From an uncultured Acidobacteriota bacterium (GTDB taxonomy: Bacteria; Acidobacteriota; Blastocatellia; RBC074), in assembly GCA_963796275.1 (NCBI GenBank), contig CAWCKY010000002.1, forward strand, positions 576,001 through 640,000: a DNA stretch of 64,000 nt, given 5' to 3'. Under the pieces are notes generated by a model. It was not told the DNA's origin, ran no database searches, and saw nothing but the letters and a program-made list of their open reading frames with translations. The translations under genes and the position numbers were made by a program. The number at the start of each line of letters is the position of its first letter. Position 1 is the first letter of the stretch. This document shows, piece by piece, positions 22,662 through 53,712 of this stretch.

Positions 22662-24101
22662 ATGAAAGCACTGGAAAAAGAAGAGCTCGAAAAAAGAGCG
22701 CTCGCCAAACGCCGAAACTTCCTGATGCAGGCGAGCGGCGGGTTGGGGGCAATCGCGCTAGCTTCGGTGTTATCCGACGACGTGTTCGGCACGGAGAATA
22801 AAACCACTGACCCTCTGGCCTCGAAGAACCCTCACCACAAGCCGCGCGCCAATTCCGTCATCTGGCTTTTCATGGAAGGCGGACCGAGCCACCTCGACAC
22901 CTTCGACCCCAAACCGGCGTTGGATAGGTTAGCGGGAAAGCCGATGCCTGAATCATTCGGGAGGCCGCTCACGGCGATGGGCACGGCTTCGAATACAATC
23001 ATGCCCACCAAACGCATATTCAAACAGTACGGGCAAAGCGGCATCCCCGTCTCAGACTGGCTACCGAATATCGCCGAACACGCAGACGAGCTGGCCGTCA
23101 TCCGCTCTTGCTGGGCAGATGGGTTGAATCACGTCGGGTCGGTTTGCCAGATGAACACCGGTTCGATCCTGGCTGGCCGCCCCTCGCTGGGAAGCTGGGC
23201 AACTTATGGCTTGGGTACTGCGAATCAGAACCTGCCGACCTTCATCATACTGTGTGACGATAAGGAAGTAGTCGGCGGCCCCAAGAACTGGAGCTCCGGC
23301 TTCCTGCCGGCGGTCTACCAGGGCACACAATTCCGCCAGGGACCGACGCCGATCTTCCATCTCGCCGCCCCCGAAACGATAGGAGATGAGCAGCAACGAA
23401 ATAAACTCGACCTGCTGGCTCAGATCAATAAGCGCTTCTCCGCTTCAAGGACGGATGACACCGAACTGCTGGCGCGCCTCAACTCTTACGAGTTGGCTTA
23501 CCGCATGCAGTCGGCCGCACCTGAGGCCGTAGACCTTACGAAAGAGTCGGAGGCGACGAAGAAACTCTACGGCATCGATAACCCGGCCACGACCAAATAC
23601 GGCACGATGTGCTTGCTCGCGCGCCGCCTGGTCGAACGCGACGTGCGGTTCATCCAGTTGTATTCGGGATCGGGCAGCGCCTGGGATGCTCACAACAATA
23701 TCGAAAGCAACCACACCCGGATGTGCCTCAGCACCGATAAACCAATCGCCGGCTTGCTAGCTGACTTGAAGTCTCGCGGTTTGCTCGAAACAACGCTCGT
23801 TGTCTGGGGCGGAGAATTCGGCCGCACGCCCTTCAACGAGAAAGGCGACGGACGCGATCATAATCCATGGGGATTTACTATCTGGATGGCAGGGGCTGGG
23901 ATCAAGGGCGGCCAGATTATCGGCGCGACCGATGAAATTGGATTGCGGGCGATCGATAAGCGGGCGCACGTCCACGACATCCACGCCACAATCCTCCATA
24001 TGCTCGGTCTCAATCACCATCGCACACTATTTCAGCATAATGGGCGGATGGAACGGCCAACTATTAACGGCGGCGTACTGATAAAGGATCTGATCTCATA
24101 G
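22662..24101 (+). CDS. DUF1501 (sulfatase-like) protein with a Tat-like signal
   Basis: KRRNFL; FMEGGPSHLDTFDPKP; WGGEFGRTP; GRDHNP; HVHDIHATIL; usual partner of DUF1549/1553 proteins. Confidence 0.92.
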   Translation: MKALEKEELEKRALAKRRNFLMQASGGLGAIALASVLSDDVFGTENKTTDPLASKNPHHKPRANSVIWLFMEGGPSHLDTFDPKPALDRLAGKPMPESFGRPLTAMGTASNTIMPTKRIFKQYGQSGIPVSDWLPNIAEHADELAVIRSCWADGLNHVGSVCQMNTGSILAGRPSLGSWATYGLGTANQNLPTFIILCDDKEVVGGPKNWSSGFLPAVYQGTQFRQGPTPIFHLAAPETIGDEQQRNKLDLLAQINKRFSASRTDDTELLARLNSYELAYRMQSAAPEAVDLTKESEATKKLYGIDNPATTKYGTMCLLARRLVERDVRFIQLYSGSGSAWDAHNNIESNHTRMCLSTDKPIAGLLADLKSRGLLETTLVVWGGEFGRTPFNEKGDGRDHNPWGFTIWMAGAGIKGGQIIGATDEIGLRAIDKRAHVHDIHATILHMLGLNHHRTLFQHNGRMERPTINGGVLIKDLIS

Positions 24102-24119
24102 AATTAACAAAAACATTAT

Positions 24120-24148
24120 TTGACATAAATGAATCATTTGTGTAGTTT
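24120..24148 (+). promoter_or_regulatory. Sigma70 promoter candidate for the DsbA operon
   Basis: TTGACA-17 nt-TAGTTT. Confidence 0.5.
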
Positions 24149-24300
24149 GCATAATCGCTGTGCAGTTTGTTTTTTCTCCCCCTGAACCCAACGATCAGTC
24201 TCAGTTAAAGCTCACATAGATCAACGACTTTTTGTTATGTCAGCTGTGCATTCTTTGTTTCTTTGCCCAATTAAGGTCCTCACAGTCGTTGCAGAGGAGA

Positions 24301-25437
24301 ATGTGCGTGTTCAACAGGATTATCGAGATTATCGAGATTATCGAGATTATCGAGATTATATTGATAACGATCGCCCTCAGCATTGGCCTCTTCTCCGCGG
24401 TTTCACTCTTTCCCAATGAATCATATGCTGGAACAGCGACCTTTCCTTGCTGCCAGAGCGACGGTAAAGAGAAACGACCCCAGCAGGAAGAACCGATAGC
24501 GGTAATAAACGGCCGCAGGATCGACAAATCTGATGTCGATGCCCCGATGGCATCTCAGATACAGGCGCTCGAACAGAAGATATACGAGATGCGAAGCAGG
24601 TCTCTGGAGACGCTGATCAACAAATTCCTCCTCGACGAAGAAGCAGCCCGGAGAGGTATCAATCTGGAGGAGTTGAGGCGTCAGGTAATAGCCGGAGTCA
24701 AGGTCGACGAAAAAGAAGTAGAAGCTGCATACAACAATAACCTGAGTCGCTATGGACCGCCTCCGGTCAGTGAACTTGAAGCCAAAGAACGGATCAGGGC
24801 AACGCTGGAGTCTCAGAAGCGATCGCAGGCTCTAAGCCAGGCAATAAGTGAGCTCAGGAGCAAATCCAAAATCGAACTCTACCTGAAAGCCCCGGAACCA
24901 TTGAAAATTGAGATCGATAAGAATGGTCCTGCGTTAGGCGCTGATAACGCTCCAATTACTATTGCTGTATTCTCCGATTTTCAATGTCAATACTGTAAGA
25001 AGGTCAATGATACGTTGAAACAGGTAATGCAAAGTAGTAACAAAGTCAGGATACTATATAAAAATCTTCCATTACCCAACCACGCCCAGTCCTTCAAAGC
25101 CGCGCAGGCCGCCAATTGTGCCGCGGCACAGAACAAGTTTTGGCCATATCACGACCTCCTTTTCGAACATTCGAGCGATCTCTCCGACAATTCGTTGAAG
25201 AGATATGCATCCGAGATTGGGATTGATTCGAATAAATTCAATTCATGTATCGACTCAGAGGGCAGCAGAGAAGCGGTCTTGAAAGATTTACAGGAAGCCA
25301 GACGAGCCGGGATATTCAGTACTCCGACTTTCATCATTAATGGTCGCGTGTTGAAGGGAGCGAGGACCTACGAGGACTTCAAAGCGATAATCGATCAAGC
25401 TCTCAAAGATCAAAAGACTGAAACTTCGGATAAATGA
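24301..25437 (+). CDS. DsbA/thioredoxin-domain oxidoreductase with a SurA-like helical N-terminal region
   Basis: FSDFQCQYC active site, KFWPYHDLLF, cis-Pro STPTFIING; hydrophobic signal segment. Confidence 0.88.
   Translation: MCVFNRIIEIIEIIEIIEIILITIALSIGLFSAVSLFPNESYAGTATFPCCQSDGKEKRPQQEEPIAVINGRRIDKSDVDAPMASQIQALEQKIYEMRSRSLETLINKFLLDEEAARRGINLEELRRQVIAGVKVDEKEVEAAYNNNLSRYGPPPVSELEAKERIRATLESQKRSQALSQAISELRSKSKIELYLKAPEPLKIEIDKNGPALGADNAPITIAVFSDFQCQYCKKVNDTLKQVMQSSNKVRILYKNLPLPNHAQSFKAAQAANCAAAQNKFWPYHDLLFEHSSDLSDNSLKRYASEIGIDSNKFNSCIDSEGSREAVLKDLQEARRAGIFSTPTFIINGRVLKGARTYEDFKAIIDQALKDQKTETSDK
24318..24360 (+). repeat. In-frame 9-bp tandem repeat (GATTATCGA x4.7, encoding IIE)
   Basis: gattatcga repeated four times, then gattata. 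Confidence 0.9.
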
Positions 25438-25454
25438 ATCAGGAGGGATTTGAA

Positions 25455-26378
25455 ATGAAAGCTGCACGGCGTTTCGGATATATTACACCGATACTCAGCG
25501 TGGTCTTCTCAATGCTCGCGTTTTCAGCGGTAAACGCCCAGAACATCTGTACGGTCTCCCTCAATACTGTCAATCACAACAGATACGCCTATGAAACGGA
25601 TGAAGAGTGTACCGCCGGTCTGCACACAGTACCGTGGGGTAACTGGGGGGTAAATTCCAACGTCGGAACCGTTCAGGACAGAGATCAGTTCAAAGGATGG
25701 AGACAGTCATGTTCCGAGGTCAAAGTCGAATGGAACAGCTGCTCTGTCAATTATGCACACCCCGATCAGAATTGCTCAAGACTTAATTTCCCTAATTGGG
25801 AAGGTACTTATCCATATCCGGCAAATGGCTATCCGGCAAGCGACTCCTATGGCTGGAATGATACGGTCCTCCCTTTCGGGAACACCACCTGCGTGGATCA
25901 ATATTCTCCTTGCGGGTTCAACCAATATGGCGGCGCACAGGTAAGTTACCAGGTGTCCGCACCTAGAGACTTCGACTGCGATGGAACTTTCGACAGCGGC
26001 GGCTGCCTTGACTTGAACGGTTCTTCTTTCACTGTCCGCAATAATTTCATGTCCGTCTATGAGCTGGACAGCCCGGACAGCGACGACCTCGTCGAAAGTA
26101 TGTATTTCCCCGATCTATCGGTAACGATGAATTGTGATGCGTATGGTTGTTACGCGGTCGGAGATAACAATTACGATGGTTGGATCGATGACGTAAACGA
26201 TCAATCCAGCCCGGCTTACAAGTGGCCGACGGTATATCAGGATGATTTGGATGTCATCTGTTATCCGAATGACTTCGGCGTTCCATGTAAAAGAATCGAT
26301 GCCACCATCCGGATCGGTCGCTTCTCCGGCTCTTTAAACCGGGCGCCGTGTGACCCGGTATGCAACCCTGATTGTTAG
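25455..26378 (+). CDS. Secreted cysteine-rich acidic protein of unknown function (16 Cys)
   Basis: AGGAGG RBS; signal peptide ending AVNA; 16 cysteines; C-terminal CDPVCNPDC. Confidence 0.75.
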   Translation: MKAARRFGYITPILSVVFSMLAFSAVNAQNICTVSLNTVNHNRYAYETDEECTAGLHTVPWGNWGVNSNVGTVQDRDQFKGWRQSCSEVKVEWNSCSVNYAHPDQNCSRLNFPNWEGTYPYPANGYPASDSYGWNDTVLPFGNTTCVDQYSPCGFNQYGGAQVSYQVSAPRDFDCDGTFDSGGCLDLNGSSFTVRNNFMSVYELDSPDSDDLVESMYFPDLSVTMNCDAYGCYAVGDNNYDGWIDDVNDQSSPAYKWPTVYQDDLDVICYPNDFGVPCKRIDATIRIGRFSGSLNRAPCDPVCNPDC

Positions 26379-34696: not shown

Positions 34697-34838
34697 AATC
34701 CGTCGTCGCATTCGGGCCAGTCCACGGTGAATCGATGCTAACTCCCAAACTTAACCTAGAAAATCTTGTCAACCGGCCACTCTTGTTTCATCATTCCCAA
34801 AATTATTCACTTTATGATCAGATGGATTGGGACATTTT

Positions 34839-35933
34839 ATGAACAAAATTCGTTTTTTGATGATAGGTGGTTTTCTGGGAGCCGGCAAGACTACTACTCT
34901 CGGCCGTTTAGCCAGGGATTATATGAATAAAGGGCTGCAGGTCGGCATCGTGACGAACGATCAGGCTACGGACCTGGTGGATACTCAGAATCTCCGCCGT
35001 CAGGGATTCGATGTCGAGGAGGTGCCGGGAGCCTGCTTCTGCTGCCGCTTCGATGATCTCATCTCGACGATCGGCCGGTTGAGCCAGAATCAAACGCCCG
35101 ACGTGATCCTGGCGGAACCGGTGGGAAGCTGCACCGATCTGGTGGCCACGGTTGTACAGCCGCTCAAACAGTTATATCCCGACCGTTTTCGGATCGCGCC
35201 GTACTCGGTGATCTTGAAGCCCAGCCACGGCCGTCGAATCCTCCGCAATGAAGCGGAGGCGGGGTTCTCTCCGAAAGCGGCCTATATTTTTCGAAAACAG
35301 CTCGAAGAAGCCGATGCCATTCTTCTTAATCGCATCGACGAATTGACTTCCGCAGAAGCCGATGAATTGACGACTCTGGTAAAAGAGGTCAATGCCGATG
35401 TTCCGGTCCTGCGCATCTCCGCGAAGACCGGTCAGGGTCTCGACGCACTGGAAGAGTTATTAGCTCAGGATGGGAACTTCGGCCGCCGCATCCTCGATCT
35501 CGATTATGATATTTATGCCGCCGGTGAGGCCGAATTGGGATGGCTGAACAGCAGCTTGAAATTCTCGAGCCCCCGTGAATTCGAACTCGACGAATTGCTC
35601 CTCGAAATCGTCCGCTCTCTGCGCGACCGTCTCGGCTCGCAGGGGTATGAGACGGCTCATCTGAAGGTCATCGGATTGTGGGAGGGATTTTTCGGTGTCG
35701 CCAATCTGGTGAGTAGCGACAGCAATCCTGAGCTCTCGCTTCCATCGCACAGCCGCGTTCGTGAAGTTGATCTGATCGTCAATGCCAGAGTCGCGACCGA
35801 TCCGGGCATTCTGGAGCGCTTCGTAAGTGAAACGGCACTTAAGCTGGGAGAAGCAAGAGAAGCTCAGGTGCAATTTCACCAGACACAAAGCTTCCGCCCA
35901 GGCCGGCCTGTTCCGACTCATCGGTTTTCTTGA
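34839..35933 (+). CDS. CobW/COG0523 (G3E) metallochaperone GTPase
   Basis: Walker [16 protein letters not shown], CxCC metal motif [25 protein letters not shown]. Confidence 0.88.
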
Positions 35934-40858: not shown

Positions 40859-42367
40859 TCAGGCAAATAGCCTTCCCGATTTTCGGACGAACTGCATCCT
40901 CCACTGCAGTACCTGAAATTGGCCGGTGAACTGGATGAACAGTCGTCTCCAGATACTTGCTCCCGCACCCGTCTGGTTATCCCAATACATTTTGGGAATC
41001 CATTTGAAATTCAGGTTGTAGGCGAGTCGGAAAAGCCGCCAGTGCATCGGAGTCATCTCTTCGATCTTGAAATGATCCCCCAGTCCGGGGATCACTGGTG
41101 AGTAGAAAATCGGGAAGATCACCAATCGTTCATTGTAGAGGTCTTCAATCCAGCGTACCGTCTTTTCGACGTGCTCAGGGGTTTCCCCCGGCAGCCCCAA
41201 AATCAGGCTTATCAATGGGAAGTAACCCGCCTTGATCAGCCGGCGCACCTGCTGGTCGCAAAGCTCGCCCCACTCCGCCGGTTTGTATGGGCGGATTTTG
41301 CCCCCCTTCTGGTTCATATCCAGCAGTTCTCCGCTGGCGGTCTCGACGCCCAGATTAACCCAGAGAAAGTCGTGGCGCTGGCCGTCGACGAGCAGGTCGT
41401 GAACCTCGCGCAGATCGTCATCGGAGTATTGAGCGACGGAGATAATATTGGCGTGATCGATCTGGATGAGTTTCAGCGGCTTGATCTCTCGCAGACGGCG
41501 AATGAGTGCCTTCAAGACGGGTGGATTCACGGGGGCGCGATGCGTATTGCCGTAGCGAAAGAAATCTTCGCTCAACGCGCAGATCGAGGTGACTCCGCGT
41601 TCGACATTCCGTTCGACGTCGGAGGCAACGACATCGAGAGGTATGTGGATCATCCTCTCCGCGGCAATCGTGCAGAACTGGCATCCCTTGCCGCAGCCGC
41701 GGCTGATCTCCACAACCCCCATTGAGGTCGGCCCGCAGATCGCCGGAATCTCATTCTCGCGCGCGCTCCTGGCGGAAACCACGGGCGGCACTTCTCTCCC
41801 GTCTATCAAATCATGAAACCAACCTGCCGCCTGCGTCTCGGCATAACCCTCGACCACCAGATCAATTCCCAGGCTCTCTCTCGCATGCTCATTCTGGGCT
41901 AATTGCCATGCGCCCGCGCCTCCCGCCACCACTTTGAATGATCCTGTCCGCTTCTTCTCTTTCAGTTGATGCAGCAGCCGCTTGTACCAGGTGTGGGTAT
42001 AGAGAGTCCCTCCGGCCATATCTGACATCGTGCTGTTGGACATGCCGCGTCCGAGCGGATCGGAAGATGAGACGGCGACGATCTTCGTCCTCGATCCGAC
42101 ACAGGCTTCCAGGTCTTCCGGAGCGCAGAGGATAACGTCATCGCGGTTGAACCCATCGTTCAGGAGAGCAGCCTCGATGCGCCGCAAGCCCATAGGCGCC
42201 TTGCGTGCCGCAATACCATCGGTCGGCATTCGGGGCGCGATCATCGTGCGCATGATAAGCTCGGGCACCGATGTGGTCTGTATCGTCCCCATCATTCCAT
42301 CGAAAAGCACAGGGTAATCAGCCATCAATGTCCGATCTGCCGTTAAAACTACGGGATATCCGCTCAT
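40859..42367 (-). CDS. Radical SAM protein with a putative B12-binding N-domain, resembling archaeal GDGT ring synthases GrsA/B
   Basis: CxxxCxxC in EISRGCGKGCQFC; N-terminal VVLTADRTLM.DY, APMGLRRIEAAL, DPLG and GGAGAWQL; later LGVETAS and ILGLPGET. Confidence 0.8.
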   Translation of the reverse strand: MSGYPVVLTADRTLMADYPVLFDGMMGTIQTTSVPELIMRTMIAPRMPTDGIAARKAPMGLRRIEAALLNDGFNRDDVILCAPEDLEACVGSRTKIVAVSSSDPLGRGMSNSTMSDMAGGTLYTHTWYKRLLHQLKEKKRTGSFKVVAGGAGAWQLAQNEHARESLGIDLVVEGYAETQAAGWFHDLIDGREVPPVVSARSARENEIPAICGPTSMGVVEISRGCGKGCQFCTIAAERMIHIPLDVVASDVERNVERGVTSICALSEDFFRYGNTHRAPVNPPVLKALIRRLREIKPLKLIQIDHANIISVAQYSDDDLREVHDLLVDGQRHDFLWVNLGVETASGELLDMNQKGGKIRPYKPAEWGELCDQQVRRLIKAGYFPLISLILGLPGETPEHVEKTVRWIEDLYNERLVIFPIFYSPVIPGLGDHFKIEEMTPMHWRLFRLAYNLNFKWIPKMYWDNQTGAGASIWRRLFIQFTGQFQVLQWRMQFVRKSGRLFA

Positions 42368-50276: not shown

Positions 50277-53200
50277 TTAAAAGGAAATTCTCAATCCGAA
50301 CTGAATACTTCGACTGCCTGCTCTCAATCCGATAATCTTCCCGAAGTCCCTATCGGTCACGCCGCCAACCGGATCCCCATATTGCGTCGTGTTGAAGGCG
50401 TTGTAGAATTCCGCCCTGAATTGCACGTTCACTCGCTCCTTGATCAGCTGGCTGCGGGAGAGCATGAGATCGAAAGTTTTGATACCCGGCCCTCGAAGAT
50501 TCGGCTGTGTACGCGAATCACTCCCCAATGTGAACGGCCGGGCAACCTCGAATGCCGTCTTATCGAACCAACTGTTGATCGTCTGTTCCCCGTTCGGCAA
50601 TATGGGTGACCTCAATTTGACTGCTGTCGCTCCGACACCGGGCAATGACGTGGCGCCAGGCGCGGTAATGACCACCGGTATCCCACTGGCGAAATTGGTG
50701 ATTCCCGAGATCTGCCAATTGCCCAGCAGATGGCCCGCCCAACCTCTCGCCAGCCATCTCTTCCCCGGTCCAAGCGGAAATTGGTAGACATAGCTCAACG
50801 CCAATATCTGAGGTCGATCATATTCGGCAACCGATCGAGAGAGCGCGAGGTTGTTCGGGTCGATATAGTTTGCACGTGAGTAAAAATTCTCCGACACATT
50901 GTTGATCTGCTTGCTCACCGTATAAGCAGCCTGGAATAGCAACCCATGGCCAAACCTCTTATCCACTCGCACCGTCATGCCGTGGTAGATCGAGTCTCCC
51001 GCGGCATCGACGTTTCGGTAGACATCCGTGTAATGTGGGTATGGCCTCAGAAGTTGCGACCGGCGTATTCTCTCAGCGCTTAATGGGCCGGTGGTGATTT
51101 GACCGAAGTACGGGTTATTCACCAGCTCATTCAACCCGTTTTCCAAAGAAAGGTGATCTGTGCTGACGGCATTCTGGTTACGCGCGATCCAGATGCGCTG
51201 CCCCCGGTTGCCGATATAAGCAAGCTCAATCAGCATATCCCGCGTCAGCGTTCGCTGGATGTTGAGGTTCCATTGATGGTTGAACGGTGTCACCCAATCG
51301 CGGAGCATCGTGTTGATGCCGGCCCCTACGCCAGTCGTTGGAGGAGGTATAAATCCACTGATGAACGGATTCGCCAAAGAAGCCCCTTCAGGCGGTGTAT
51401 TGGGCGCTTCGGGCGCCTGGCCCAGGAAGACCGGAGTACGCGTGAGGAATCCGTCTCCCAAAGCGATTACACCGGATCCTATCCCACCGCTGCCCGGGAA
51501 ATAAAAGAGACCATAGCCGATACGCAGAACCGTATCTTTCTTAAACTCCCAGGCCAGTCCAAATCGCGGTGCGAAGTTGTTCCGGTCCGGATCGAATTGA
51601 TGACGCGTGTTGCCGTCGCGCCCTGCGTAACGCAGGACGCCTTTCTCCCCCGTGATCGGTTCGATGGCGTCGGGGTCGAAGTAAGCCAACTGATCGAATC
51701 GATCGGTCCAAGGTGACTGATATTCCCAACGCATCCCTAAATTGAGCGTGAGGCGGCGGCCCACTTTCCAGTCATCTTGCGCGTACCAGGCATAGTATTT
51801 TTGCGATGCGGCCAGGGTCGGGTCATCTGAGATAAGTCCTCCGGTCGGTGCGCCGAGCAGAAGCGTGGCCACACCGTGACCTGATGAGGCATTTGCAACG
51901 AGAGGGTTCGGCCCCTGCGTGAACTCGCGCCCGAACGAATAGGAGCCCGACGGCTGTTCCGGGCGGAAGATGTTGAATGCGGTGAACATGAGGTCAAAAC
52001 CCGTTTTCACCGAATGGTCTCCGCGTTGCCAGGTGAAATGCCCCTGGGCTTCTCCGGTATTCTCGGCATCGGTGAAATAGAATGCCCTGTCCGGCCCCAG
52101 AGGGATCTACATCGGAGATATTGAATCGCGGGAAGAGGAGGGTCTTGGAATAATTTTTTAGTGATTCGGAAAATCCGAGTTGCGTGAAATCGAATCCGAC
52201 GCTCTCAGGAGTCAGGACAAACAGGGCGCGCGCGAAACTGGCGCGGAACTCTGCGACCAGGTTCGGATTGAGTGTGATCGTATCCCCCAGAATAAAGGCT
52301 CGCGGATGGAACTCGAATACTCCTCCATTAGCGGGGAACGCTTCGTTGAGGCTGGGCGTCACCGGTTCGCCATCCTGCCTACCATAACTCATAAACAGTT
52401 TATGGCTCTTCCCGAGGTTGTGGTCGACGCGGAAAAACATCTTCCACTGATCATTTATGCTTGAACCACCGGTCTGGACGAAGTTCTGCGTCAGCGTCGA
52501 TCTGTTCGGAAGCGGGTAGTACTCCAGCACCCGACGAGCGATCGGATCGATCCGGTCGGGACAAATCACATTGAGCCTGTCACCACAACTGATCTGTTGG
52601 CGAAGGTATATGGATTGGCCGGGCCTATCCGGATCGGGTACCGTTACTGTTGTGCGCGGATTTGGATCAAAGATTTTGATAAGGTTGCCGTTGTTATCGA
52701 ACGTCTGTGAAAAATCGCCGGCGCGCTCCAGGGCAGTCGGTACAGTAGCAACGAGTTGGTATGGTGAACGCGATTTAGTCTGTTCCCAGTTGACGAAGAA
52801 GAAAGTCCGGTCGTGCCCGTTGTAAAGCCGCGGCAGGTAGACCGGTCCGCTCACCGAAAATCCATATTCGTTCCGTCGAAACGGAGTGCGGTCCACGCCG
52901 CGCAGATTGTTGAAGAATGAGTTGGCGTTCAGCTTGTCGTTTTGCAGGTACTCGTAGAAGCTGCCGTGCAGAGCGTTGGTCCCCGAACGAGTGCTGGCTG
53001 TCAGCACACCGCCGCCCGATCGCCCGAATTCAGCCGACATGCTGTTGGTGATGACTTTGAATTCCCCCACTGCCTCCAGAGGCGGTGTGTAGGCGATCCC
53101 GCCTGAAGTGGTGTTGCGCGTCTCGGCGCCGTCGAGCAATATTTCTGTGGTGCTTATTCGGCCGCCATTGATCAGGGATCCGGCCCCCCCACCGACGATG

Positions 53201-53712
53201 GGGGCCACACCTGGCGCCAGCGTCAACAGATCGTAAGGGTTGCGACCGGCCGTGGGCAATTGGATGATCTGACTGCTCACGAACACATTGCCGAGTGTCG
53301 CGGTTTGACGTTCGAGTTGCACGGAAGTGGCTGTCACCGTCACCGCATCGAGCTGCAATGTTCCAGGCGCAAGTGAGACATTGATCGTGGCCGTCAGCCC
53401 CACGGTGATCACGATTCCTACAACGCGCCCTTTGCTGAATCCCTGACTCTCCACAGTCAACTCATACTGTCCAATCGGCAGGTATGGCACACGGTAATGC
53501 CCCTCCTCATTGGTCCGGGTCTCCCGCTTAACCCCCGTCTGGGTGTGAGTAACGACGATCAGCGCGCTGGGAACGATTGCTCCCGACTGATCCGTCACTG
53601 TCCCGGTAATGGTACCCTGGTCTATCTGAGCGAATGCCGTCGATGTAAACCCATAGAAAAAAAATACAAGTATTGCCGTGGCTGATGGCAAACGCCAACC
53701 GTGACGCCTCAT
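50277..53712 (-). CDS. TonB-dependent receptor, tandem paralog of 46657-50085, with a +1 frameshift at 52102-52104
   Basis: Removing one G joins ..NISDVDPLGPDRAFYFTDAENTGEAQGHFTW.., matching the paralog's NIADVASLGPDRASYFTDAENAGELQGHFTW. Confidence 0.88.

Follow-up and report, generated by a model that had tools for sequence, protein, structure and literature searches.

What does a bacterial relative of the archaeal enzymes that form rings in membrane tetraethers do inside a terpenoid operon? The question is raised by P0001, a radical S-adenosylmethionine (SAM) enzyme of 502 residues encoded from an ATG start on the minus strand at positions 40859-42367 of the 64,000-nucleotide stretch of DNA analyzed here (the window; positions 576,001 to 640,000 of contig CAWCKY010000002.1, assembly GCA_963796275.1, from an uncultured Acidobacteriota bacterium). 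A first-pass annotation made from the letters alone had seen in it six motifs recalling the Grs ring synthases of archaeal glycerol dialkyl glycerol tetraethers (GDGTs). It proposed that the enzyme forms rings either in an isoprenoid of the operon or in branched GDGTs (brGDGTs), with a hopanoid methylase of the HpnP/HpnR type as the alternative. The reading that we favor, with a probability of about 60%, is that P0001 represents a distinct bacterial clade within the B12-domain radical SAM superfamily of the archaeal Grs enzymes and is the member of a conserved five-gene terpenoid cassette that modifies a polyprenoid by radical chemistry. Because its gene lies in a conserved operon with an orphan cyclase, P0001 probably tailors a cyclic isoprenoid and not branched tetraethers.

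The open reading frame (ORF) and all six motifs proved to be real. In the translation, LTADRTLMADY occupies residues 8-18, APMGLRRIEAALL (of the APxGLRRIEAAL type) residues 57-69, DPLG residues 103-106, GGAGAWQL residues 149-156, EISRGCGKGCQFC, which contains the CX3CX2C radical SAM motif, residues 220-232, and IPLDVVASDVERN residues 242-254. The motif residues are mostly invariant in an alignment of 27 orthologues and the matches are therefore not due to chance: invariant positions are L8, T9, A10, D11, G60, R62, R63, E65, L68, P104, G106, G149, G150 and G152-Q155 toward the N-terminus, and E220, S222-G224, C225, C229, C232, D250 and N254 in the core. LTADRTLM, APxGLRRIEAAL, DPLG and GGxGAWQ are all located in an N-terminal Rossmann/B12-binding-like domain of about residues 1-210 (41738-42367, minus strand), which was assigned from these conserved motifs and a sub-threshold Pfam match, and alignments show that the series is kept in both the bacterial clade and its archaeal relatives. 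Many of the 40 positions conserved jointly in the two groups also fall in this domain.

Pfam Radical_SAM matches P0001 at 43.2 bits (cut-off 29.5), and the cysteines of the [4Fe-4S]/SAM motif, C225, C229 and C232 (41672-41695, minus strand), are the sole invariant cysteines over 75 aligned sequences. The alignment supports a predicted single [4Fe-4S] cluster, and the restriction of invariant cysteines to CX3CX2C agrees with the available part of a review that describes Grs as being without an auxiliary cluster (PMC13459092). On sequence, P0001 thus has the Grs architecture, in which a B12-type Rossmann domain precedes a CX3CX2C core and an auxiliary Fe-S cluster is absent, with the B12 match remaining sub-threshold. 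The last 82 residues (40862-41107, minus strand) are kept within the bacterial clade (mean identity 47%) and diverge from the archaeal relatives (14%), to which the rest of the protein is 28-33% identical. In the same review, as far as its accessible sections go, the C-terminal helix of GrsA and GrsB models is predicted to bind the substrate (PMC13459092). 

P0001 probably uses cobalamin, to judge from its domains. The N-terminal domain of the family carries the GG-motif found in B12-binding domains. Among solved structures, the family profile best matches that of the B12-dependent enzyme QCMT (PDB 9CCB, E 1.3e-20, profile positions 149-411), aligning with it from the GG/GGP motif on through the radical SAM core. 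In addition, CobS is encoded in the host genome. P0001 exceeds no NCBIfam cut-off; 16 families are listed at E<=0.01, the best being TIGR04013 (MJ_1487 B12/radical SAM family; 66.5 bits against a cut-off of 251, residues 128-295 only), and the QCMT family model TIGR04014 gives 21 bits against a cut-off of 360. The host genome holds no paralogue of P0001, the next phmmer match having an E of only 1e-4, and we accordingly rejected a placement of P0001 as a paralogue of the other B12-type radical SAM proteins of this genome.

The terpene cyclase operon described in the first-pass annotation was likewise borne out. Six genes lie on one strand, the minus strand, in the order GcvH-like protein, ferredoxin, P0001, cyclase, DUF116-synthase and toroid protein. 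Directly upstream of P0001 is the gene for P0004 (42544-43581), a ferredoxin-domain protein of 345 residues with matches to the Pfam Fer4 families and two [4Fe-4S] sites at residues 202-260, which is the presumed electron donor of P0001. Beginning 6 bp past the P0001 stop is the gene for P0002 (38960-40852), a class II terpenoid cyclase of the squalene-hopene cyclase (SHC) family. This "SHC-like" protein has 630 residues, a DADDTA motif and matches to Pfam SQHop_cyclase_C/N; with the hopene cyclase model it gives 107 bits, below the cut-off of 431. It is followed by P0003 (36998-38833, 611 residues), a fusion of a Cys-rich DUF116 domain (Pfam, 124 bits) with a trans-polyprenyl diphosphate synthase (polyprenyl_synt, 162 bits) whose nearest solved relative is the geranylgeranyl diphosphate synthase 1WY0. 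The synthase motif DDIED is invariant in 54/54 homologues, a second motif, D/N-DxxD, starts with D in 31 and N in 23, and both positions that limit chain length hold an invariant small residue, Ser at -4 and Ala at -5, which we take to fit a product longer than C15. The last gene encodes P0005 (35994-36890, 298 residues), a prenyltransferase-type alpha/alpha toroid protein (Pfam Prenyltrans, 62 bits) with weak PDB matches to the RabGGTase beta subunit. A scan of the operon for promoters and terminators returned sites not above those of shuffled sequence. A look-up of sequencing runs listed none of RNA, and three of DNA with small shares of the sequence.

Is this arrangement peculiar to the host? 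A word-indexed search with P0001 scored 8000 proteins, of which 1371 reached E<=0.001; the best 120 are 46-97% identical and, where organisms are named, come from Blastocatellia, Verrucomicrobia, Planctomycetes, Armatimonadota and Brocadiia; the orthologues overall range from 39 to 97% identity. When one genome per species was scanned, 483 relatives came to light, and we examined the best 80 loci by tblastn with six window proteins, counting genes on the same strand as the radical SAM gene. These loci belong to Planctomycetota (48), Armatimonadota (11), Verrucomicrobiota (6), Acidobacteriota (2), Thermodesulfobacteriota (2), Lentisphaerota, Chloroflexota and Kiritimatiellota (1 each), with 8 having no assigned phylum. 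The ferredoxin gene was found at 73/80 loci, and directly upstream at 63/66 of those with enough flank, here 1.2 kb or more on the upstream side. The corresponding values, the second of each pair counting loci with 7 kb or more of downstream sequence, are 68/80 and 45/51 for the SHC-like cyclase, 65/80 and 44/51 for the DUF116-synthase, and 54/80 and 41/51 for the toroid protein. Cassette synteny therefore holds over eight named phyla, and in all four of the searched genomes with a lone radical SAM gene the cyclase is present elsewhere (49-60% identity). P0001 itself shares at least 39% full-length identity with the bacterial cassette clade, follows a ferredoxin gene and stands beside the cyclase and DUF116-synthase genes. 

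Two loci show fusions: radical SAM enzyme and SHC-like cyclase share a single frame of at least 1027 residues that reaches the contig end at L033:8655-11735 (plus strand; 1/68 testable loci), and ferredoxin and radical SAM enzyme share a frame of 823 residues at L057:4773-7244 (plus strand; 1/73 testable loci). Additional genes that recur with the cassette encode a pyrroloquinoline quinone-type beta-propeller (42/80), a GT4 glycosyltransferase (12/80) and, in a few cases, ABC/MacB proteins.

The relationship of this bacterial clade to the archaeal enzymes was explored by searching 1.84 billion cluster representatives exhaustively with HMMER, which returned 676 matches at E<=0.001, 350 at 1e-10 and 159 at 1e-30. 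The matches form two tiers, namely orthologues of at least 39% identity and full-length proteins of 25-35% identity. An organism name was obtained for 8 of the 20 second-tier representatives looked up, and all eight are archaeal: Bathyarchaeia (twice), Archaeoglobaceae, Odinarchaeota, Methanopyrus kandleri, Thermoplasmata, Thermoprotei and Euryarchaeota. The named homologues of one archaeal relative, P0156, are also all archaeal, and in the protein atlas, where P0001 itself is absent, the neighbors of one P0001 homologue were again planctomycete and Bathyarchaeota proteins. By blastp, P0001 is 25.5-34.3% identical (median 30.2) to 84 full-length second-tier representatives, with coverage of 74-99% and E of 4e-39 to 1e-82. 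The accessible part of a preprint defines Grs by BLASTP to Sulfolobus acidocaldarius GrsA and GrsB at a coverage of at least 70%, an identity of at least 20% and E<=1e-40 (bioRxiv 10.1101/2022.08.15.504015). When these cut-offs were applied by proxy, comparing the archaeal representatives with P0001 instead of with GrsA/GrsB, 83/84 fell within them. On a hidden Markov model (HMM) of the archaeal tier P0001 reached 426.6 bits, compared with 57.9 bits for the next-best ORF in the genome. The resemblance to Grs noted in the first-pass annotation is thus that of a full-length homologue of the archaeal family taken as Grs. As the identity within the archaeal tier itself has a median of only 32.9% (5th percentile 27.7%), the P0001 clade is about as deep as the subclades of the tier.

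That this archaeal tier is the Grs family is, in our estimation, highly probable, given four indirect lines of sequence evidence. One is the taxon range, which comprises Bathyarchaeia, Archaeoglobi, Hadarchaeum, Methanocellales, Nitrososphaerales, Thermoplasmata, Thermoprotei, Odinarchaeia and Methanopyrus, with Ferroglobus also returned. This agrees with the published range of grs, so far as the available text gives it, including the single grs reported for Methanopyrus (bioRxiv 10.1101/2022.08.15.504015). Among the archaeal-tier names there were none from Methanobacteriales or Methanococcales, two orders that account for a large share of the Gmm methylase family. Another line comes from models: none of ten sampled members matches BchE, PhpK or HpnR models at E<=1e-10. 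A MoeK5-like neighbor protein scores 65-97 bits on these three models, and since Gmm is MoeK5-like, the lack of such matches argues that the tier is Grs-type. Supporting the same assignment is the fact that acidobacterial proteins described below nest in the tier, as reported for acidobacterial grs among archaeal grs in the part of the preprint available (bioRxiv 10.1101/2022.08.15.504015). Lastly, a Black Sea survey with GrsA as the BLAST query, again as far as its accessible text goes, found matches mainly in Planctomycetota (94/684 bins, class Phycisphaerae) and some in Desulfobacterota and Acidobacteria (PMC11868695), which is the range of the P0001 clade. NCBIfam holds no model naming any subclade of the archaeal tier.

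Trees were computed with IQ-TREE (quick mode, LG+G4) and rooted on four distant B12-type radical SAM proteins of the host genome; the rows P0218, P0260 and P0152, which are long or partial, were left out. The input comprised the 150 best P0001 matches only, so that farther Grs subfamilies may be missing from the following picture. The ingroup received an SH-like approximate likelihood ratio (SH-aLRT) support of 97-98. The 15 rows of the bacterial cassette clade form one clade (SH-aLRT 95; 97 or 88 in two trees when row P0146 is included), and none of them lies on the archaeal side, a branch with an SH-aLRT of 97-98 parting the clade of P0001 from all 83 rows of the archaeal tier. The bacterial clade may be a sister group of Grs as a whole or one deep subfamily within Grs. 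P0001 stays apart from generic class B radical SAM enzymes in the trees and does not match the HpnR model; clustering with enzymes of these kinds was what the first-pass annotation had named as fatal to its proposal.

Could the cassette simply be the hopanoid pathway of this organism? The canonical hopanoid locus of the host genome is situated on another contig (G000 contig C4, 441001-460000; L094) and encodes HpnC, HpnD, HpnE, SHC (777 bits) and HpnJ (665 bits), so that the organism has two separate cyclase pathways. At E<=0.01 P0001 matches neither the HpnR model TIGR04367 (cut-off 650 bits) nor the HpnJ model TIGR03471 (cut-off 577.6 bits), and the HpnJ of the genome lies in the hopanoid locus. 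We therefore rejected P0001 as a hopanoid enzyme of the HpnR or HpnJ type; judged by the HpnR model and the separate hopanoid locus, the HpnP/HpnR-like alternative of the first-pass annotation fails. We regard this separateness from the hopanoid pathway as shown, along with the homology, clade structure, synteny and genome-level co-occurrence described above.

A role in brGDGT synthesis was the other option that had been put forward, and bacterial Grs homologues have been proposed for brGDGT rings in the parts of two reports available (Halamka et al., PMC10087280; bioRxiv 10.1101/2022.08.15.504015). In our sample of 401 Acidobacteriota genomes, P0001 has matches at E<=1e-30 in 47. Matches at the orthologue level are limited to two of them, the host genome and G049 (47% identity, an unpublished genome). 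The remaining 45/401 carry a different Grs-like protein, here called type 2, with 27-33% identity to P0001. Ten type 2 loci were fetched (L095-L104, e.g., L095:8154-9920, minus strand) and ORFs were obtained from eight. These proteins have 575-607 residues (roughly 590), score 444-520 bits on the archaeal HMM and sit in the archaeal clade of the tree beside a Thermoprotei representative. Their neighbors are unrelated housekeeping genes with no terpene cassette, exceptions being a gene for an AhbD-like radical SAM/SPASM protein (L095) and one for a BchE/PhpK-like B12-type radical SAM protein (L102). There are consequently at least two distinct bacterial Grs-like lineages, of which only one is nested among the archaeal enzymes, and type 2 probably corresponds to what the brGDGT papers describe as the "acidobacterial Grs homologue". 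The archaeal-tier HMM detected no type 2 protein among the ORFs of the host genome. A brGDGT role for P0001 is unlikely because P0001 is bound to the cyclase cassette, other Acidobacteriota have the archaeal-nested type 2 protein and the host genome lacks it, and this part of the first-pass proposal was not supported.

A variant of the cassette bears on how closely the radical step is tied to the cyclase. The SHC-like cyclase was present in 14/401 Acidobacteriota genomes, 12 of them without a P0001 orthologue. In all five of the acidobacterial cassettes with both ferredoxin and synthase genes among the loci retrieved, the slot between them holds a SPASM-type radical SAM protein of 414 residues (L109:14132-15376, minus strand; equivalents in L110, L112, L113 and L114). 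This protein is unrelated to P0001 (BLASTP E 0.63), its nearest models being NirJ/AhbD/HpnH-like; it occurs at 0/80 P0001-type loci, and the host genome has no orthologue of it. The occupation of the P0001 slot by such a protein implies that the cassette retains a ferredoxin plus a radical SAM enzyme while the type of the latter swaps.

That P0001 acts on the isoprenoid of the cassette is very likely in our view. We infer its substrate, its use of cobalamin, the order of steps and the reaction type, and the pathway would run as follows. The DUF116-fused synthase would build a polyprenyl diphosphate other than squalene, which the SHC-like DxDD cyclase, together with the small toroid protein, would cyclize by protonation. 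The ferredoxin encoded upstream would reduce the cluster of P0001, which would then cleave SAM to a 5'-deoxyadenosyl radical, and this radical would take hydrogen from an unreactive C-H of the isoprenoid made by the synthase and cyclase. Cobalamin would probably hold the first substrate radical. By analogy with Grs, the favored outcome would be an intramolecular C-C bond, that is, an extra small ring or a cross-link; we put such a ring closure or cross-linking at somewhat under an even chance, and name it as the single reaction we would bet on first.

Several points weigh against the reading of P0001 as a Grs-superfamily enzyme that modifies a polyprenoid by radical chemistry. The Pfam B12-binding match (residues 58-179) reaches 17.8 bits, under the cut-off of 32.1, so that cobalamin binding stays a prediction. 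The Grs label of the archaeal tier is one that we infer from taxon range, model matches, tree and survey, and both the monophyly of the archaeal side (SH-aLRT 65) and the rooting are weak. With methylases and a desaturase among the known relatives in the superfamily, the reaction of P0001 cannot be read from homology, and the unrelated SPASM-type protein in the same slot means that chemistry other than that of Grs could serve for the radical step. The chains on which Grs acts are saturated, while no conserved reductase or saturase was seen among the neighbors of the 80 loci. The fusions at L033 and L057, being single cases from metagenome bins, could be natural or assembly errors.

Which other reactions, then, would fit the locus? 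The wider family performs every one of those considered here except coupling. Methylation is the commonest reaction of B12-type radical SAM enzymes, and P0001 might be a cobalamin-dependent C-methyltransferase of the cyclic terpenoid of the cassette, an analogue of HpnP or HpnR on a Grs-like scaffold. We consider this unlikely, albeit the most serious competitor: the nearest solved profile relative is indeed a B12-dependent methylase (QCMT, 9CCB), and related archaeal lipid enzymes include the methylases Gmm, Cgm and Pgm. However, the QCMT match is confined to the core, TIGR04367 is unmatched, and the closest large family is the Grs-type tier and not the methylases of the MoeK5, BchE or PhpK type. 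Slightly less likely again is another radical reaction on the isoprenoid, either an anaerobic desaturation, as by Ted, or, as a core step, a tail-to-tail prenyl coupling that makes the non-squalene substrate of the cyclase. That ferredoxin and a radical SAM enzyme are retained while the enzyme type is swapped points to an integral step; in the accessible literature the cyclase clade is considered not to use squalene, and a B12-type radical SAM tetraether desaturase (Ted) has been described there. Yet Ted belongs, according to the same limited text, to the Gmm-like branch. A P0001 orthologue is missing from 12 of the 14 Acidobacteriota with the cyclase, and the coupling variant has the further difficulty that we know of no coupling enzyme of the B12-domain type.

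The two remaining explanations place P0001 outside the pathway of its neighbors. That it is a brGDGT ring synthase, forming cyclopentane rings in fatty-acid-derived tetraethers, might be suggested by the acidobacterial affiliation of the host (judged by nearest loci) and by the ring role proposed, in the text available, for bacterial Grs homologues of Solibacter usitatus, Acidobacteriae and Planctomycetota. The gene, however, is bound to a cyclase and prenyl synthase cassette at 45/51 loci with enough flank, orthologues are confined to the host and one other of the 401 Acidobacteriota as against 45/401 with type 2, and the host lacks type 2, which together make this explanation highly improbable. 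Still less credible is a MiaB/RimO-like modifier of RNA or protein that merely adjoins terpenoid genes. It would account for weak model matches and weak RimO/MiaB structure matches, the MiaB label of a homologue in one source and the MtaB label of two related clusters in the Atlas; but the score on TIGR00089 is 51 bits against a cut-off of 251, P0001 has neither the conserved three cysteines at the N-terminus nor a Pfam TRAM match, and the cassette synteny extends across eight named phyla. We therefore rejected P0001 as a methylthiotransferase of this type.

Some neighboring features deserve mention in their own right. The operon is headed by the gene for the GcvH-like protein P0006 (43602-44057, minus strand, 151 residues; Pfam GCV_H 78 bits), which keeps a lysine in an ESSKA context, presumably that of the GcvH lipoylation site. 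Such a protein occurs with the cassette only in Acidobacteriota and Verrucomicrobiota (10/80 loci, plus 3/5 of the variant acidobacterial cassettes) and is a lineage-specific accessory. A gene for a CobW/COG0523-type GTPase lies beside the cassette in the window (34827-35933, plus strand), at three other clustered loci and at L109:16679-17923 (minus strand); it may encode a chaperone connected with metals or cobalamin, or be next to the cassette by chance. Farther away, two ORFs (51994-53712 and 50277-52010, minus strand) overlap by 17 bp and correspond to the N-terminal part (CarboxypepD_reg, barrel positions 1-271) and C-terminal part (301-838) of one OMP_b-brl_4 barrel, so that 50277-53712 is a frameshifted or split gene for a TonB-dependent-type receptor. 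The G+C content of positions 24001-26000 is 0.47, compared with about 0.55 elsewhere in the window.

If the proposed role is correct, the set of ferredoxin, Grs-like radical SAM enzyme, SHC-like cyclase, DUF116-prenyl synthase and toroid protein could reveal the product of the orphan cyclase, whose clade is, in the accessible parts of two evolutionary studies, the main unknown in the history of terpenoid cyclases (PMC7306690, PMC12324236). It would also add bacterial terpenoids to archaeal membrane lipids as targets of a family of enzymes that functionalize inert isoprenoid C-H bonds, which bears on lipid-tailoring chemistry across domains. Bacterial BLAST matches to GrsA would then be a poor marker of brGDGT cyclization, a matter of consequence for palaeoclimate proxies as treated in the available portions of three papers (PMC10087280, PMC11868695, PMC13023045). 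The full proposal is more speculative, and we advance it tentatively: Grs-type ring chemistry might extend beyond archaea through a sister enzyme in Planctomycetota, Armatimonadota, Verrucomicrobiota and a few Acidobacteriota that adds a radical C-C bond to an acid-cyclized polyprenoid, the products being an undescribed class of bacterial cyclic isoprenoid lipids and possibly orphan geological biomarkers. In that case the bacterial "GrsA homologues" from metagenomes, e.g., the 94/684 Planctomycetota bins given in the accessible text of PMC11868695, would largely be this enzyme under a mistaken reading.

How, finally, does P0001 compare with known systems? The validated ring synthases are GrsA (Saci_1585) and GrsB (Saci_0240) of S. 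acidocaldarius, according to the parts available of PMC13459092 and bioRxiv 10.1101/2022.08.15.504015. P0001 resembles the Grs enzymes in its length of about 500 residues, N-terminal Rossmann/B12-like domain, single CX3CX2C cluster and isoprenoid-lipid context, and in its 25-34% identity over 74-99% to the archaeal family taken as Grs, with 40 shared conserved positions. It differs in belonging to a separate bacterial clade (SH-aLRT 95-100, set against the archaeal tier and not against validated GrsA/GrsB), in the divergence of its C-terminal 82 residues (14% identity) and in its setting, together with genes for a class II cyclase and a prenyl synthase in bacteria from which isoprenoid GDGTs are not known. 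Unlike P0001, with which they share a superfamily (27-33% identity), the type 2 acidobacterial proteins are longer (575-607 residues), score higher on the archaeal HMM (444-520 versus 427 bits), are nested among archaeal enzymes and have no terpene cassette.

The glutamine C-methyltransferase QCMT/MgmA (9CCB) is the best solved profile relative of P0001 and has cobalamin in its Rossmann domain, whereas it methylates a protein and aligns with the P0001 family only in the Rossmann end and radical SAM core. HpnR, HpnP and HpnJ modify a cyclic triterpenoid and have a cyclase gene in their vicinity, while P0001 has no match to the HpnR and HpnJ models and the hopanoid locus of its host is on another contig. 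Gmm, Cgm and Pgm, methylases of GDGTs and of glycerol monoalkyl glycerol tetraethers (GMGTs), and the tetraether desaturase Ted are said to be homologous to Grs in the accessible text of PMC11214058 and bioRxiv 10.1101/2025.10.20.683597. Like P0001 as we read it, they work on inert isoprenoid chains; they are set apart, by description, in being MoeK5-like (31% identity to MoeK5 in the text available), and the relatives of P0001 are without BchE/PhpK-type matches.

The cyclase P0002 has its counterpart in the "SHC-like" clade of unknown function described by Santana-Molina et al. (2020; PMC7306690) and McShea et al. (2025; PMC12324236), whose context, in the accessible parts of both papers, points to a non-squalene precursor. 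P0002 shares the taxon range of that clade (Planctomycetes-Verrucomicrobia-Chlamydiae group and Acidobacteriota) and keeps the catalytic DxDD, and in the portions of these two papers available the radical SAM enzyme is not named and no link to Grs is made. We found no literature that links a Grs-like radical SAM enzyme with the SHC-like cassette, supplements that possibly show this neighborhood (Fig. S10 of PMC7306690) being outside the search. Bacterial "GrsA homologues" read as markers of brGDGT rings and an orphan cyclase have thus been described separately.

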